A DNA stretch of 64,000 bases from Escherichia coli (GTDB lineage: Bacteria; Pseudomonadota; Gammaproteobacteria; Enterobacterales; Enterobacteriaceae), in NCBI RefSeq assembly GCF_017348835.2, contig NZ_CP071375.1; one strand, given 5' to 3'. The position numbers and the translations under genes were made by a program. How positions within the stretch are numbered: position 1 is the first letter of the stretch; the number at the start of each line of letters is the position of its first letter. The notes under the pieces are model-generated. The model was not told the DNA's origin and did no database searches. It was given only the letters and a program-made list of their open reading frames with translations. This document shows, piece after piece, positions 16,813 through 52,066 of the stretch.

Positions 16813-17098
16813 TTATGTTGGCGTTTTCTATTCAGTATAGAAGTGGGAGCGGCCAGGCGAGATGCGGAAGTTCTGGAATGTTTCTTTTTTTGGTGATGGT
16901 GACTGAAGCAATTTGGCTACTTTTGCAATGTGACAAGTTATGGCACGGCTGGCTGGTGGCGAAGAATTTTGATGATTGGGGCGCGCAGAATAAAACTGGC
17001 TCAGCTTCAGTTGATCAAATGAGGAGTGAGAAGTCCGAAACAAGACTCACTGTATAAATAAACAGCTATTTTATTGAGGAAGGGTAAGATAACGGCGG

Positions 17099-17332
17099 GT
17101 GCCTGAAGCTTTCCGGTTTCAGGTTAACTCTGAGGTCTGGAAAGATGAAGCCCCAGGAGATATTTCTATCAACCCTGGGGCTACCTACCCAAACCTGAAC
17201 AATTTGGATGGTAGTCCCTTCTTCGCATGGAGGCAATATAAACATGCTGACGAAATATGCCCTTGTGGCAGTCATAGTGCTGTGTTTGACAGTGCTGGGA
17301 TTTACGCTTCTGGTCGGAGACTCGTTGTGTGA
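17099..17332 (+). CDS. mokE: Possible mokE, the overlapping reading frame that couples hokE translation; start codon uncertain
   Basis: Open frame in a different phase overlapping the hokE start, as in hok/mok loci; the annotated start at 17099 is GTG and lies close to the likely mRNA 5' end. Confidence 0.3.
17125..17200 (-). ncRNA. sokE: Expected position of the sokE antisense RNA (boundaries approximate)
   Basis: Inferred only from hok/sok family architecture (antisense to the mok leader upstream of hok); no promoter or terminator pinned down. Confidence 0.3.
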
Positions 17333-17396
17333 GTTTACGGTGAAGGAACGTAATATTGAGTTCAGGGCTGTTCTCGCTTACGAACCGAAGAAGTAG
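17244..17396 (+). CDS. hokE: HokE, type I toxin (small membrane-depolarising peptide)
   Basis: ATG at 17244; 50 aa [50 protein letters not shown], typical Hok TM helix plus conserved C-terminus. Confidence 0.9.
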
Positions 17397-17402
17397 CCGT
17401 TG

Positions 17403-17496
17403 TGCGGGGAGCAATCCCCGCATATCCGGTTGTCAGGTCAGAGTGGTAAGGCACCTGCTTTACACTTTCGCCCGCAGTCAGTGATGGCTGCGGGCG
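17403..17496. other. Two perfect hairpins downstream of hokE (hok mRNA 3' fold-back region / entD 3' end); the first carries a GGGG-N6-CCCC motif
   Basis: TGCGGGG-agcaat-CCCCGCA at 17403-17422 and CGCCCGCAG-N10-CTGCGGGCG at 17469-17496, read directly; neither has a clear U-tract. Confidence 0.6.
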
Positions 17497-17517
17497 AATC
17501 GTACCAGATGTTGTCAA

Positions 17518-18138
17518 TTAATCGTGTTGGCACAGAGTTATGACTATTTTTTCTTTTATCTGCCAGTGCACAGCAAACATCTCATTCTCACGATGAATGA
17601 TGACCTGCTGTTTATTCCAGCTAATTATCTGATAGTCCAGAAAACCTGCATCAGTTTGGATCTCACTTGCCTTAAATGCGCTCTCTTTGGCGGAAAATGC
17701 CAGTGTCAGCGCCAGAGAAAAGGCTAAACCGCAGTCAGCGAGTCGCTCGTGTTCTGCTGGTGTAATAATGTTGTCTGTCAATTCGGTCGCTGTTTGCGCA
17801 GAAAAAATTTCTTCGATATCAACGCCAATCGGTTGACGGGAAACCACGGCCAATGCCGTAGCCCCGCAGTGGCTAATACTGCCGTATACCTCCGCAGGCC
17901 ACACCGGTTGGCGTAGCTCGCCGATTGCGGGCACACATTTATAGCCATATTCCCGCAAGGCATAAACAGCAGCGATCCGTCCGGCTAAATGCTCCGTTTT
18001 ACGTTTACGTCCAGCGTGTTGCAGTTGTGCGTAGTGCGGCAGCCAGAGTAAATCCTGCTCACAAAAATTCGCCGGATCGAACTCAACAAAATGCAGCGTA
18101 TGTCCGGCAAAGGGGAGGGAGGTATGCGTAGTTTTCAT
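17518..18138 (-). CDS. entD: EntD, phosphopantetheinyl transferase for EntB/EntF
   Basis: ORF 17518-18288; start taken at MKTTHTSLPFAGH giving 206 aa (the longer ORF runs into a REP element). Confidence 0.88.
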   Translation of the reverse strand: MKTTHTSLPFAGHTLHFVEFDPANFCEQDLLWLPHYAQLQHAGRKRKTEHLAGRIAAVYALREYGYKCVPAIGELRQPVWPAEVYGSISHCGATALAVVSRQPIGVDIEEIFSAQTATELTDNIITPAEHERLADCGLAFSLALTLAFSAKESAFKASEIQTDAGFLDYQIISWNKQQVIIHRENEMFAVHWQIKEKIVITLCQHD

Positions 18139-18174
18139 ATCGACCATATTCGAGACTGATGACAAACGCAAAAC

Positions 18175-18275
18175 TGCCTGATGCGCTACGCTTATCAGGC
18201 CTACGTGGTCCTGCAATATATTGAATTGGCAAGATTTTTGTAGGCCGGATAAGGCGTTCACGCCGCATCCGGCAT
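18175..18275. repeat. REP/BIME-type palindromic repeats between entD and fepA
   Basis: GCCTGATGCGCTACGCTTATCAGGCCTAC and GTAGGCCGGATAAGGCGTTCACGCCGCATCCGGCA, typical REP palindromic units. Confidence 0.8.
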
Positions 18276-18312
18276 GAACGACGCGCACTTTGTCAACAAT
18301 CTGACGTTAGCA

Positions 18313-20553
18313 TCAGAAGTGAGTGTTTACGCTCATATACAACGTACGTCCCGGCTCGTTATAGGTATACGCCCCGGCACCGGCGATATAGTTGGCCCCT
18401 GCCAGATCGCCCGTGGTCTGGGCATTACCCGCACGCCACAAACGTTTGTCGAACAGGTTGTCCACGCCGCCGGTCAGACTGACATTCTTCGTCACATCCC
18501 AGGTCGCGCTCAGACCCACAATGCTGTAAGGACTGATTTCTTTGGTTTCCGGGCCAACCGCTGGCTGACCTTTATAGTTGTACTTCTTCGGCTGCTGCTT
18601 ACCGTACCAGGTGAAGGTCGTTTGCATCGACAAATCTTCTCGTGCCTGCCAGCTCAGCGTTGAGTTCAACGTATACTCCGGGATGATCGACAAACGGTCG
18701 CCCGTGGTTTTGTTTTCACTCTTCAGCATATAAGTGATGTTATTAGTCCACATCACCGTTTCGCTAACCGGTACGTTTAACGATCCTTCCAGACCTTCAA
18801 CCACCGCTTTCGGCACGTTATCCCACTGATAGAGATCGGTGCCGACTGCGTTTTGCCCTACAGCCACATAGCCCGCTTCAATCTTATTGCGATAATCGTT
18901 ACGGAACCAGGTGACGCCCGCCAGCCAGCCGTCGCGTTTGAACTCCAGACCAATCTCTTTGTTGATGCTGGTTTCCGCTTTCAGGTCATCATTACCTTGC
19001 AGATAGCAGCCGCCCGCGCTGGCATAGCAACCCTGACCTTTACTGTAGAGAATGTAGTTCGGGTTAGTCTGGTACAGGCTCGGCGCTTTATAAGCACGGG
19101 CAATGCCCATTTTCAGCGTGAAGTCATCGCCTAAACCTTGCGATATGTTCAGCGCCGGGCTCCAGTTATTGCCAACTATACTGTGATGATCGAAACGCAG
19201 CCCCGGCGTTACGATGGTGCTGTCAGTCAGCTCCATATTGTTTTCGGCAAACAGCGAGAAAATTTCTGCTTTTGAATACGGGCTACGGTCGGTGGCACTC
19301 ACGCCATCAATAGCGCCACCGGTATTCGTTCCGGTCAGTGCCTGGGTGTTGGAACTTAAGTCCTTCATCCGCTGCTGATTCCACTCCGTACCCAGCGTCA
19401 GCGTCTGGTTAACGAGGAAATCAATCGGCAGGTTAACTTCGCTGTGCAGCATCACGTCATCAAGATCGATATCGACGAAATCCTGTGTCGCTTTTTCGTT
19501 AAATTTCCCTTCGGTACCGCCCGCCAGACCTTCCGGAATACGCGAGTTACGGGTGTGTTCGTACTGCACCCAGTTGCTGGTGGTCACGCCGTTATCCCAG
19601 CCACCGTTCCAGGTCAGCGAGTAGTTCTGGCGATACAGGCGGTTGGTTTCATCGCCATATTTCGAGCGAGTGTAAGCGTCAGAGTTGGTGTTCTGGGTAT
19701 CGCCCGCATACAGGTTACCCTGGCGGCTGTAACCCGCTTCCAGTTCGAGTGATTGCAGAGGCGCGAAGTCCCAGCGCACCACGCCATTAATATCTTTGTT
19801 GATCACCCCTTCGCGCCCGGCTGGTAACGTCGTGGCATACGTTCCGGCACGCGCGGACTGATGGCCCTGGTTGATATCCCACGCGTCAGCCTGAGTTTTG
19901 TCGAGGTTGCCATACAAGCGGAAGCTGAATTCGTCGCCCAGCGGACCGGTCAGGCTAAAGTTAGTGCGTTTGGTGGCACCTTCCTCTTTATGTTCTGGCG
20001 CATTGAAATATGCGTCCCAGGAGCCGTGCCACTCGCCGCTGCCTTTTTTGGTAATGATGTTAACCACGCCGCCCGCCGCGCCGTTGCCGTAACGCGCAGC
20101 TGCCGGACCACGCAGAACTTCAATACGTTCAATCATTTCAGGTGGCACCCAGGAAGTATCACCACGGGTATCGCGCTCGCCACGCCAGCCCTGACGCACC
20201 GAGTTACGGCTGCTTACCGGTTTGCCGTCAATCAAAATTAGCGTGTTTTCCGGACCCATGCCGCGAATATCAATCTGTCGGTTATTCCCACGCTGACCAC
20301 TGGTGGAGTTACCGGTCAGGTTAACGCCTGGCATGGTACGGATGATCTCCGACACATCGCGGGCAACCGGGTTTTTGCGGATTTCATCTGCGGTGATGGT
20401 CGAAACGCCAGGCGCCTGTAAGTTCTGCTCGGCGGCGGTAACGACAATAGTATCGTCATGTGAAACAGGAGTATCGGTCGGCTCTTGTGCCTGCGCTACC
20501 CCATAAATCCCCAGATTGACCAACAAGGCCAGGGAATGAATCTTCTTGTTCAT
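18313..20553 (-). CDS. fepA: FepA, TonB-dependent ferric enterobactin outer-membrane receptor
   Basis: ORF 18313-20613; start taken at MNKKIHSLALLVNLGIYGVAQA (signal peptide) giving 746 aa; C-terminal ...YMSVNTHF. Confidence 0.95.
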   Translation of the reverse strand: MNKKIHSLALLVNLGIYGVAQAQEPTDTPVSHDDTIVVTAAEQNLQAPGVSTITADEIRKNPVARDVSEIIRTMPGVNLTGNSTSGQRGNNRQIDIRGMGPENTLILIDGKPVSSRNSVRQGWRGERDTRGDTSWVPPEMIERIEVLRGPAAARYGNGAAGGVVNIITKKGSGEWHGSWDAYFNAPEHKEEGATKRTNFSLTGPLGDEFSFRLYGNLDKTQADAWDINQGHQSARAGTYATTLPAGREGVINKDINGVVRWDFAPLQSLELEAGYSRQGNLYAGDTQNTNSDAYTRSKYGDETNRLYRQNYSLTWNGGWDNGVTTSNWVQYEHTRNSRIPEGLAGGTEGKFNEKATQDFVDIDLDDVMLHSEVNLPIDFLVNQTLTLGTEWNQQRMKDLSSNTQALTGTNTGGAIDGVSATDRSPYSKAEIFSLFAENNMELTDSTIVTPGLRFDHHSIVGNNWSPALNISQGLGDDFTLKMGIARAYKAPSLYQTNPNYILYSKGQGCYASAGGCYLQGNDDLKAETSINKEIGLEFKRDGWLAGVTWFRNDYRNKIEAGYVAVGQNAVGTDLYQWDNVPKAVVEGLEGSLNVPVSETVMWTNNITYMLKSENKTTGDRLSIIPEYTLNSTLSWQAREDLSMQTTFTWYGKQQPKKYNYKGQPAVGPETKEISPYSIVGLSATWDVTKNVSLTGGVDNLFDKRLWRAGNAQTTGDLAGANYIAGAGAYTYNEPGRTLYMSVNTHF

Positions 20554-37766: not shown

Positions 37767-39872
37767 ATGAACAAATCAGGGAAATACCTCGTCTGGACAG
37801 TGCTCTCTGTAATGGGAGCATTTGCTCTGGGATACATTGCTTTAAATCGTGGGGAACAGATCAACGCGCTGTGGATTGTGGTGGCGTCGGTCTGTATCTA
37901 TCTGATCGCTTACCGTTTTTATGGCCTGTATATCGCCAAAAATGTGCTGGCGGTTGACCCGACGCGTATGACGCCAGCGGTGCGCCATAACGACGGGCTG
38001 GACTATGTGCCGACGGACAAGAAAGTGCTGTTCGGTCACCATTTTGCGGCCATTGCCGGAGCAGGTCCGTTGGTGGGGCCGGTGCTGGCAGCGCAAATGG
38101 GCTACCTGCCGGGGATGATCTGGCTGCTCGCCGGGGTGGTTCTCGCCGGTGCGGTGCAGGATTTCATGGTGCTGTTTGTTTCTACGCGCCGTGACGGTCG
38201 TTCGCTGGGTGAGCTGGTCAAAGAAGAGATGGGGCCAACCGCCGGGGTGATCGCGCTGGTGGCCTGCTTTATGATCATGGTCATTATCCTTGCAGTACTG
38301 GCGATGATCGTGGTGAAAGCCCTGACTCATAGCCCGTGGGGAACGTATACCGTTGCGTTCACCATTCCGCTGGCGCTGTTTATGGGGATCTACCTGCGCT
38401 ATCTGCGTCCGGGGCGTATTGGTGAAGTGTCGGTCATCGGTCTGGTATTCCTGATTTTCGCCATTATCTCTGGCGGCTGGGTGGCAGAAAGTCCGACCTG
38501 GGCACCGTACTTTGACTTTACCGGCGTGCAGCTGACCTGGATGCTGGTGGGTTACGGTTTTGTGGCGGCGGTGCTGCCGGTGTGGTTGCTGCTGGCTCCG
38601 CGTGACTACCTCTCTACCTTCCTGAAAATCGGGACGATCGTCGGTCTGGCGGTAGGCATTTTGATTATGCGCCCGACGCTGACCATGCCTGCACTAACTA
38701 AATTTGTTGATGGTACTGGCCCGGTATGGACCGGTAACCTGTTCCCGTTCCTGTTTATCACCATCGCCTGTGGCGCGGTGTCAGGCTTCCATGCGCTGAT
38801 CTCTTCCGGCACCACGCCGAAGATGCTGGCGAACGAAGGGCAGGCGTGCTTTATCGGCTACGGTGGAATGTTAATGGAATCCTTCGTGGCGATTATGGCG
38901 CTGGTTTCCGCCTGTATCATCGATCCGGGCGTTTACTTTGCCATGAACAGCCCAATGGCGGTGCTGGCTCCGGCAGGGACGGCGGATGTGGTCGCTTCTG
39001 CCGCGCAGGTGGTGAGTAGCTGGGGCTTTGCGATTACCCCGGATACGCTAAACCAGATTGCCAGCGAAGTGGGTGAACAGTCGATCATTTCCCGTGCGGG
39101 CGGTGCGCCGACGCTGGCGGTGGGGATGGCCTACATTCTGCACGGCGCGCTGGGCGGCATGATGGATGTGGCGTTCTGGTATCACTTCGCCATTTTGTTT
39201 GAAGCATTGTTTATTCTGACGGCGGTGGATGCAGGTACGCGTGCTGCGCGCTTTATGTTGCAGGATCTGCTGGGCGTGGTTTCTCCGGGCCTGAAACGGA
39301 CCGATTCACTGCCTGCTAACCTGCTGGCAACGGCGCTGTGCGTGCTAGCGTGGGGCTACTTCCTGCATCAGGGGGGGGTCGACCCGCTGGGTGGTATTAA
39401 CACTCTGTGGCCGCTGTTTGGTATTGCCAACCAGATGCTGGCAGGGATGGCGCTGATGCTCTGTGCCGTGGTGCTGTTCAAAATGAAACGTCAACGTTAC
39501 GCCTGGGTGGCGCTGGTACCAACGGCCTGGCTGCTGATTTGTACCCTGACCGCTGGCTGGCAGAAAGCGTTTAGCCCGGATGCGAAAGTCGGCTTCCTGG
39601 CCATTGCTAACAAGTTCCAGGCAATGATCGACAGCGGCAATATTCCGTCGCAGTATACTGAGTCACAGCTGGCGCAACTGGTGTTCAACAACCGTCTGGA
39701 TGCCGGGTTAACCATCTTCTTTATGGTGGTCGTGGTGGTTCTGGCACTGTTCTCGATTAAGACGGCACTTGCGGCATTGAAAGAGCCGAAGCCAACGGCG
39801 AAAGAAACGCCGTATGAGCCGATGCCGGAAAATGTTGAGGAGATCGTAGCGCAGGCGAAAGGCGCGCACTAA
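37767..39872 (+). CDS. cstA: CstA, carbon starvation protein / peptide-pyruvate transporter
   Basis: 701-aa polytopic membrane ORF; recognised by recall. Confidence 0.93.
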   Translation: MNKSGKYLVWTVLSVMGAFALGYIALNRGEQINALWIVVASVCIYLIAYRFYGLYIAKNVLAVDPTRMTPAVRHNDGLDYVPTDKKVLFGHHFAAIAGAGPLVGPVLAAQMGYLPGMIWLLAGVVLAGAVQDFMVLFVSTRRDGRSLGELVKEEMGPTAGVIALVACFMIMVIILAVLAMIVVKALTHSPWGTYTVAFTIPLALFMGIYLRYLRPGRIGEVSVIGLVFLIFAIISGGWVAESPTWAPYFDFTGVQLTWMLVGYGFVAAVLPVWLLLAPRDYLSTFLKIGTIVGLAVGILIMRPTLTMPALTKFVDGTGPVWTGNLFPFLFITIACGAVSGFHALISSGTTPKMLANEGQACFIGYGGMLMESFVAIMALVSACIIDPGVYFAMNSPMAVLAPAGTADVVASAAQVVSSWGFAITPDTLNQIASEVGEQSIISRAGGAPTLAVGMAYILHGALGGMMDVAFWYHFAILFEALFILTAVDAGTRAARFMLQDLLGVVSPGLKRTDSLPANLLATALCVLAWGYFLHQGGVDPLGGINTLWPLFGIANQMLAGMALMLCAVVLFKMKRQRYAWVALVPTAWLLICTLTAGWQKAFSPDAKVGFLAIANKFQAMIDSGNIPSQYTESQLAQLVFNNRLDAGLTIFFMVVVVVLALFSIKTALAALKEPKPTAKETPYEPMPENVEEIVAQAKGAH

Positions 39873-39879
39873 AGTCAGA

Positions 39880-40020
39880 GTGAGGGGGATGTTGGCGAAT
39901 GTTGGCATAGTGCCGAGGGTTCCCCCTCACTCTAACCATCTCCCCGATGGGGCGAGGGGACTGACCGAGCGCGTTGATAGCATTTGTAGGCCGGATAAAG
40001 CGTTCACGCCGCATCCGGCA
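39880..40020. repeat. Palindromic intergenic repeats (REP-like) between cstA and ybdD
   Basis: AGAGTGAGGGGGA ... TCCCCCTCACTCT inverted repeat at about 39880-39935, then REP unit GTAGGCCGGATAAAGCGTTCACGCCGCATCCGGCA. Confidence 0.75.
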
Positions 40021-40052: not shown

Positions 40053-40250
40053 ATGTTTGATTCACTGGCAAAAGCCGGAAAATATTTAGGTCAGGCGGCG
40101 AAGCTGATGATTGGTATGCCTGATTACGACAACTATGTCGAACATATGCGGGTTAACCATCCCGATCAAACGCCGATGACCTACGAAGAGTTTTTCCGTG
40201 AGCGGCAGGACGCGCGCTACGGTGGAAAAGGCGGCGCGCGCTGCTGCTAA
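40053..40250 (+). CDS. ybdD: YbdD, small DUF466-family protein co-located with cstA
   Basis: 65-aa ORF; recognised by recall. Confidence 0.85.
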
Positions 40251-46443: not shown

Positions 46444-46726
46444 TAATTTGTCCTTTTCAGTCAGTGCAAAAGTCGAGTAAAAGGCATAACCTATCACTGT
46501 CATAGGTAAGAGCTTAGATCAGGTGATTGCCCTTTGTTTATGAGGGTGTTGTAATCCATGTCGTTGTTGCATTTGTAAGGGCAACACCTCAGCCTGCAGG
46601 CAGGCGCTGAAGATACCAAAGGGTAGTTCAGATTACACGGTCACCTGGAAAGGGGGCCATTTTACTTTTTATCGCCGCTGGCGGTGCAAAGTTCACAAAG
46701 TTGTCTTACGAAGGTTGTAAGGTAAA

Positions 46727-51837: not shown

Positions 51838-52066
51838 TTTTACTCCATGTCGTCGGTACTGCGAGTGTCGCAGATAAACATACCCAAAAGAAAACCCTCA
51901 CCGTCAGGCGGCGAGGGTTTAACTCACATGATGATACTGACTGTTGCTCACTCTTTGAAGTGATTTGCGTCACATTCAGGGAATTCCTCAATGCAGCGCA
52001 TTATGTATAAATCTTAATCGCCTTGGTTTATGGAAGACGAATTAGCGTGTTTTGTAAATCAGAGGA

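Follow-up and report, generated by a model that had tools for sequence, protein, structure and literature searches.

Analysis of the BIME-1 repeat between fepA and entD in Escherichia coli and of the EntD start

Background

REP units are imperfect palindromes of 30-40 nt. BIME-1 elements consist of a y-type and a z1-type REP unit separated by a conserved L linker in which an IHF site is frequent, and they occur in single copy (PMC3333891). They are about 140 bp long, and the whole element is either present or absent between isolates (PMC1187871). REP sequences have been described both as barriers to exonucleases and as attenuators (summarized in PMC12306157). In E. coli, fepA and entD form a single Fur-regulated operon that is divergent from fes (PMC10763504). 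The two genes are transcribed divergently from fes-ybdZ-entF-fepE (PMC10763504; PMC4676285).

The repeat considered here lies between fepA and entD in a 64,000-nt stretch of E. coli DNA (the window). It resembles the described BIME-1 elements in having an exact inverted pair of y and z1 units, an L linker with an IHF-like core, a single copy of about 140-150 bp, an extragenic position downstream of the 3' end of a gene, and its presence in some isolates and absence from others. Unlike a BIME-1 placed behind the last gene of a transcription unit, this one stands between two cistrons of an operon, and it is unusually conserved across Escherichia. Another close system is found between malE and malF, where intercistronic REP sequences reportedly act as stabilisers; this is said to go back to Newbury et al. 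in 1987 and Higgins et al. in 1982. By analogy, both operons would have a REP structure that separates an upstream gene with high expression from a downstream gene with low expression. The cluster of REPs at malE-malF presumably belongs to a different BIME type from the fepA-entD BIME-1 with its IHF-type linker.

REP sequences upstream of entD were reportedly noted when the gene was sequenced in 1989. Both BIME-1 and its location here are already known. Literature on REP at entD-fepA, on the entD start codon, on ES036, and on Term-seq of fepA yielded nothing specific to this site, and the supplements of Dar & Sorek 2018 mention neither fepA nor entD. The additions made here are modest: the exact 152-nt limits of the element, its allele frequencies, an ancestral hairpin at the same position, and strong conservation across species.

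Results and discussion

Gene layout of the fepA-entD region

The stretch 17400-18700 of the window is 100% identical to E. coli F2_81 and matches 5,425 of 5,426 complete E. coli genomes. The coordinates of all features are listed in Table 1. The original prediction had placed the repeat between convergent 3' ends of entD and fepA; this does not agree with the RefSeq annotations of F2_81 and K-12, in which both genes lie on the minus strand. In K-12 the two genes are arranged as in the window and separated by the same spacer of 174 nt. Since the two genes are co-directional in one operon, the BIME sits between the fepA stop and the entD start, inside the polycistronic transcript. It begins 9 nt past the fepA stop and ends 13 nt ahead of the entD ATG.

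Table 1. Coordinates of the features of the fepA-entD region in the window, from fepA to entD
Feature	Position	Strand	Description
fepA CDS	18313-20553	-	746 codons + stop, TGA at 18315-18313; RefSeq annotation of F2_81 mapped onto the window
entD-fepA spacer	18139-18312		174 nt
Gap between fepA stop and element	18304-18312	-	9 nt, TGCTAACGT; invariant in 7 Escherichia
Complete BIME-1	18152-18303	-	152 nt: outer arm, y REP, L linker, inverted z1 REP, outer arm; read 5' to 3' in the sense of the fepA-entD mRNA
5' outer arm	18289-18303	-	CAGATTGTTGACAAA; kept in paralogous copies
y REP	18240-18273	-	GTAG at 18240-18243 (+)
L linker	18205-18239	-	35 nt between the two REPs
z1 REP	18176-18204	+	inverted relative to y; GTAG at 18204-18201 (-)
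3' outer arm	18152-18166	-	TTTGTCATCAGTCTC
Spurious upstream extension of the entD frame	18139-18288	-	50 codons, through the whole BIME core
Alternative in-frame ATG (historical 209-aa start)	18145-18147	-	codon is ATA in BIME-less E. coli and E. fergusonii
entD CDS	17518-18138	-	206 codons + stop, ATG at 18138-18136; RefSeq annotation (F2_81, K-12)

Several other features were recorded in the window. A hokE/sokE type I toxin-antitoxin locus lies at 17097-17396, just downstream of entD, with the Rfam family sok at 17097-17252 (87.1 bits) and hokE annotated at 17245-17397 (derived from the F2_81 positions). There is no IS186 between hokE and entD in this strain, while K-12 has IS186B there. 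E. fergusonii has two hok/sok copies at the position downstream of entD. Farther away, two Rfam families are found above their gathering scores: the rnk leader at 51883-51991 (minus strand, 124.9 bits) and STnc70 at 46577-46670 (plus strand, 44.1 bits).

Structure of the repeat

The z1-type REP consensus GCCTGATGCGCTACGCTTATCAGGCCTAC and the y-type REP consensus GCCGGATGCGGCGTGAACGCCTTATCCGGCCTAC each match the spacer on opposite strands with 0 mismatches, and for each 0.00 matches are expected from shuffles of the window. The two consensus sequences were validated by these exact matches and by identical units in 8 other copies. The REP units are mutually inverted, with arms 18191-18204/18240-18253 at 93% and 18175-18185/18264-18274 at 91%. 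The original prediction of two inverted REP units in the entD-fepA spacer, for which a REP motif scan had been proposed as a check, is thus borne out at the coordinates given for them. A single general REP pattern with the loop set at 4 nt gave no matches because the loop of the y unit is shorter. The tail shared by REP units, CTTATCMGGCCTAC, occurs 3 times in the window (0.02 expected). The third site belongs to a lone y-type REP with 1 mismatch at 39986-40019, which is placed after a 701-codon ORF (37767-39872) and before a short ORF starting near 40054. From its position we take the former to be cstA.

Outside the REP pair, the outer arms form a further inverted repeat (18289-18302 with 18153-18166, 86% complementary). 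These arms presumably correspond to what are named 'A/B motifs'. The interval 18175-18275, which had been described as filling the spacer, does hold the REP pair with its linker, but the full repeat is larger: the REP pair and linker account for 58% of the spacer and the complete BIME-1 for 87%.

Each palindrome has at its foot the conserved tetranucleotide GTAG given in PMC3333891, and the GTAG feet of the y and z1 units both face the L linker. Both units are extragenic, being located in 18139-18312 once entD is given its 206-aa start. One y and one inverted z1 unit surround a long L linker in a single copy, as BIME-1 is defined (PMC3333891, PMC1187871). The element also has the expected size, 152 nt, and both its presence and its absence are found among E. 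coli genomes. From its sequence, it is almost certainly one BIME-1 (also called RIP or RIB, and REPIN-like) in the fepA-entD intercistronic spacer.

Copies at other loci

The spacer sequence does match BIME-1 copies elsewhere. When the 174-nt spacer was compared with a plasmid collection (PLSDB) by BLAST, non-orthologous copies matched spacer positions 9-165 at 84-91% identity. Eight copies were fetched, including those at the dppA-dppB, cueO, msrA, rlmC-artJ, and tkt loci, and all align with the spacer over 152 nt. The alignment runs from CAGATTGTTGAC to CATCAGTCTC (window 18303 down to 18152), and similarity drops abruptly at both limits. The limits of BIME-1 were set by this alignment, by the BLAST ranges, and by the comparison of filled and empty sites at tkt. 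The PLSDB records concerned (L004-L011) are filed as E. coli or Klebsiella 'plasmids' and carry these chromosomal genes. Their mobility type is non-mobilizable, and they resemble fragments of chromosomes or integrated segments.

At the tkt/prohibitin-family spacer (L011:140-320 compared with L022), the empty site has one terminator hairpin, AAGGGCCGCGAAAGCGGCCCTT, with TTTTT behind it. Where the site is filled, this hairpin is present twice, as 22 nt to the left and 18 nt to the right of the 152-nt BIME-1, with the T tract after the right copy. To judge from the sequence, the filled site looks like an 18-nt target duplication. The rlmC-artJ copy in L004 likewise has similar hairpins on both sides, and the allele in L010 is without the right one. 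Taken with the hairpin allele at fepA-entD (see below), the tkt site tentatively suggests that terminator-type hairpins could be preferred insertion targets of BIME-1 and that the copies could be co-opted as operon-internal RNA structures. Filled and empty sites at fepA-entD and tkt represent gain or loss of the element. The repeat shares with REPIN/RAYT systems the two inverted REPs with GTAG around a spacer and the dispersed copies. Unlike in those systems, BIME-1 at fepA-entD replaces a 29-nt hairpin and is not a simple insertion, and the RAYT gene is outside the window.

The L linker

The linker contains an IHF-like core, ATTCAATATATTG, at 18214-18226 (minus strand), which matches WATCAANNNNTTR at 12 of 13 positions. 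Note that a scan of the window with the IHF consensus gave 52 matches where 52 were expected, which is the level of chance. The TCAA and ATT positions of the core are invariant in 9 aligned copies (TCAA is at 18221-18224, minus strand). The L linker has been reported as an IHF site (PMC3333891; PMC2817692), and on this literature-based expectation it is likely a candidate IHF site at the DNA level. It might then be asked if the main selected role of the repeat is at that level, with IHF (and, more weakly, gyrase or Pol I) bound there for local topology or nucleoid organisation. The reported IHF site and the invariant core TCAA....ATT speak for this. However, the motif match is at chance level and BIME-less relatives have, at the same position, a short hairpin without an IHF-like linker (see below), so that we consider such a role quite improbable.

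The Rfam model RF02751 (ES036, also CssrF) matches the linker at 18197-18238 on the minus strand with 42.2 bits (gathering score 37.6). While the linker is like the ES036 small RNA in exceeding the gathering score and in lying on the transcribed strand, the model is not confined to one gene: it also matches the linker in 4 of the 8 copies at other loci, best at dppA-dppB with 56.7 bits. Because ES036 fits BIME-1 linkers at several loci, it labels the repeat and not a site-specific small RNA gene.

The start of EntD

The longest entD frame has 256 codons and begins with GTG at 18288-18286. It had been described as running through the first REP unit from a Met at 18288. It does cross the first unit, but it crosses the second as well, and the codon at 18288 is GTG and not ATG in the list of ORFs. 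The argument made at the time, that REP units are extragenic and that the shorter start is therefore to be preferred, is weak by itself; its conclusion, a 206-aa EntD starting at 18138, is upheld by independent evidence from frame-shifting indels, BIME-less alleles, and the alignment with Citrobacter.

In L012-L015, all Escherichia with BIME-1, 1-nt indels within the element break or shift the frame ahead of entD. What stays open in front of the ATG amounts to 69 nt in L013 and 87 nt in L015; in L012 and L014 it is 153 nt, in another frame. In BIME-less E. coli, the entD frame cannot exceed 206 codons. EntD of Citrobacter (207-208 aa) starts at the residue aligned with Met51 of the 256-codon frame. 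Neither E. fergusonii nor Citrobacter EntD has the extension, and residues 1-50 of the long frame are covered by no homologue outside Escherichia. The Pfam domains 4PPT_N and ACPS are found at residues 87-150 and 153-253 of the long frame, and the NCBIfam EntD equivalog NF007604 matches residues 48-256 with 436.6 bits (cutoff 169). From the indels, the 206-codon frame of the BIME-less allele, the Citrobacter start, and the limits of the Pfam and NCBIfam matches, it follows that the extension is non-coding.

A third candidate start, the ATG at 18147 that gives a 209-aa form, was omitted from the original prediction. This ATG is conserved in all BIME-bearing Escherichia examined, and the NF007604 match still includes the 3 extra residues. 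No Shine-Dalgarno sequence is found ahead of either ATG (the upstream text is CAGTCTCGAATATGGTCGAT). Some initiation at 18147 may occur; as far as sequence comparison goes, this ATG is probably not used. By the same comparisons EntD is a 206-residue protein starting at 18138, and this start is already used by RefSeq.

Public gene calls often extend EntD, as in P0001 (247 aa, 2,481 member sequences) and P0003 (260 aa). Among the calls P0001, P0003, P0004, and P0039, some are N-terminally extended through the BIME (247 and 260 aa) and others have altered C-termini (236 and 219 aa). The altered C-termini suggest frameshifts or mis-calls in the source assemblies.

Such extended calls, together with the ES036 match above its threshold, are what can be said for reading the spacer as the gene of a separate small RNA (ES036) or as the N-terminal part of a longer EntD (256 or 247 aa). 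Yet ES036 matches BIME-1 linkers at other loci, the indels in L012-L015 shift the frame, BIME-less alleles, Citrobacter, and E. fergusonii do without the extension, and the Pfam domains start only at residue 87 of the long form. This explanation can practically be dismissed.

RNA structure of the intercistronic region

The spacer region 18130-18320 has a predicted fold of -73.7 kcal/mol (z = -6.6), and BIME-1 alone is predicted to fold as RNA at -64.6 kcal/mol (z = -6.8). Within it, the y REP alone is predicted to fold at -21.3 kcal/mol (z = -5.2) and the z1 REP at -12.9 kcal/mol. Across the paralogous copies, the proposed pairs can be formed in 94.4% of cells, while slid controls reach 29-38%, and the outer arms are 92.6% paired. 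Compensatory changes across these copies are no more frequent than in shuffles. At the locus itself, the closing pair of the z1 stem is changed from G-C to A-U in E. albertii, which is compensatory.

The structure is not an intrinsic terminator, in that it is followed by GAAUAUGG and not by a U tract. Scans for promoters and terminators found no sigma-70 promoter-like and no intrinsic-terminator-like site in 17300-18700. These results bear on another explanation, in which BIME-1 is the complete terminator of fepA and entD has a promoter of its own, within the spacer or close to it. A hairpin with a U-rich tract at the same position in C. amalonaticus and a perfect TTGACA hexamer in the outer arm would fit such an arrangement. 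It is nevertheless very improbable, given the outcome of the scans, the missing U tract in E. coli, and the published view of fepA and entD as a single operon under the control of the fepA promoters (PMC10763504).

As an RNA structure inside the operon, the repeat could act in the following way. BIME-1 would be transcribed within the fepA-entD mRNA and would fold into a very stable branched stem-loop. This structure would block 3' to 5' exonucleases, so that the fepA segment would outlive the entD segment, and it would also attenuate read-through into entD. The outcome would be an abundant FepA receptor and very little EntD enzyme. The lack of a Shine-Dalgarno sequence at entD fits low expression. 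A stem 9 nt past a stop codon is reportedly close enough to affect translation termination, a finding ascribed to Liang et al. in 2015. By analogy, it is possible that the first stem, at this distance from the fepA stop, affects termination of fepA translation.

Alleles of the spacer and the ancestral hairpin

BIME-1 is present at fepA-entD in 5,345 of 5,426 complete E. coli genomes (98.5%). Another 59 genomes (1.1%) have a 49-nt spacer without it, in the middle of which 29 nt, CTTCCTCCCCCGATATTTGGGGGAGGAAT, stand in place of 154 nt of the common allele. This sequence is predicted to fold into a 12-bp hairpin of -25.3 kcal/mol. A scan of genome contigs for EntD gave five Escherichia loci, and the E. 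fergusonii and Citrobacter loci were obtained by exact-protein look-ups. E. albertii, E. whittamii, and two further Escherichia carry BIME-1. The spacer of E. fergusonii is identical to the 49-nt spacer of E. coli. In two Citrobacter species the spacer has 50 nt and contains, at the corresponding position, a hairpin that differs in sequence and is similar in strength (-25.6 and -24.5 kcal/mol); the hairpin of C. amalonaticus is followed by a U-rich tract. In E. fergusonii, the two Citrobacter species, and BIME-less E. coli, the hairpins are GC-rich, have 10-12 bp and -23 to -26 kcal/mol, and stand 4-9 nt past the fepA stop.

According to these folding predictions, a stable structure just after fepA is a feature common to all the lineages, and BIME-1 supplies it in most Escherichia. 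The hairpin of E. fergusonii and Citrobacter, a candidate intrinsic terminator or 3' stabiliser, is like BIME-1 in that it stands 4-9 nt past the fepA stop, ahead of entD, and in being a stable RNA structure. The two differ in size and stability (29 nt and about -25 kcal/mol for the hairpin, 152 nt and about -65 kcal/mol for BIME-1), and they have no sequence similarity. Since the hairpin allele cannot be re-formed through loss of BIME-1, both alleles must be old. A recent import of the BIME-less allele of E. coli from E. fergusonii was also considered and is unsupported: its entD is 91.6% identical to that of E. fergusonii, which is no closer than to other E. coli alleles. One tentative possibility is that BIME-1 displaced an ancestral post-fepA hairpin, took over its role, and has since been under purifying selection across Escherichia, with the hairpin allele being an old polymorphism shared with E. 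fergusonii.

Conservation of the fepA-entD copy

Between E. albertii and the window, the element has 7 differences in 152 nt (4.6%) and the four-fold degenerate sites of the flanking fepA and entD differ by 34.9% (P = 2e-19). For E. whittamii the corresponding values are 2.0% and 24.7% (P = 4e-15). The element diverges more slowly in 6 of 6 comparisons, K-12 included, and evolves 7-12 times slower than the flanking four-fold degenerate sites. A stretch of 66 nt comprising the outer arm and the y REP is invariant in all seven Escherichia sequences. Where this copy departs from the family consensus, e.g. in GCGCGTCGTTCATG and TCTTGCCAA, the variants are shared between species. That locus-specific variants are shared in this way speaks against homogenisation by other copies and favours purifying selection here. 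The slow evolution could come in part from conversion, hairpin-templated repair, or interspecies recombination.

As for the genes on the two sides, entD diverges more than the adjacent 3' region of fepA: between the window and E. albertii, identity is 83.7% in 17518-18138 and 90.5% in 18313-19512. Alleles of entD within E. coli differ by up to 9%, and EntD of Escherichia sp. MOD1-EC7003 ends differently at the C-terminus.

These rates also have to be set against the view that the repeat is a selfish or neutral copy without locus-specific function, namely a REPIN that the RAYT transposase TnpA-REP moved into a tolerant intergenic site. BIMEs have been proposed as non-autonomous transposable elements (PMC2817692; PMC3333891), the family is dispersed, and presence or absence between strains is found both here and at tkt. 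A neutral copy would not, however, be expected to evolve so much more slowly than four-fold sites, to keep locus-specific variants across species, or to sit exactly where BIME-less relatives have a stable hairpin, and we regard this view as rather unlikely.

Conclusions

Taken as a whole, the best explanation is that EntD starts at 18138 and that BIME-1 acts as an intercistronic RNA structure which would protect the fepA mRNA and limit entD. By analogy with described REP functions, we consider this role likely; the 59 complete E. coli genomes that lack the element speak against it. For annotation, the value of the analysis is that the repeat creates a long false frame and that the data fix the EntD start at 206 residues. 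The locus is a textbook case of a REP/BIME inside an operon, and the current understanding of such repeats is unchanged. The natural pair of alleles, BIME-1 and the ancestral hairpin, together with the conservation of the element, makes a ready-made system for the question of the FepA:EntD ratio.
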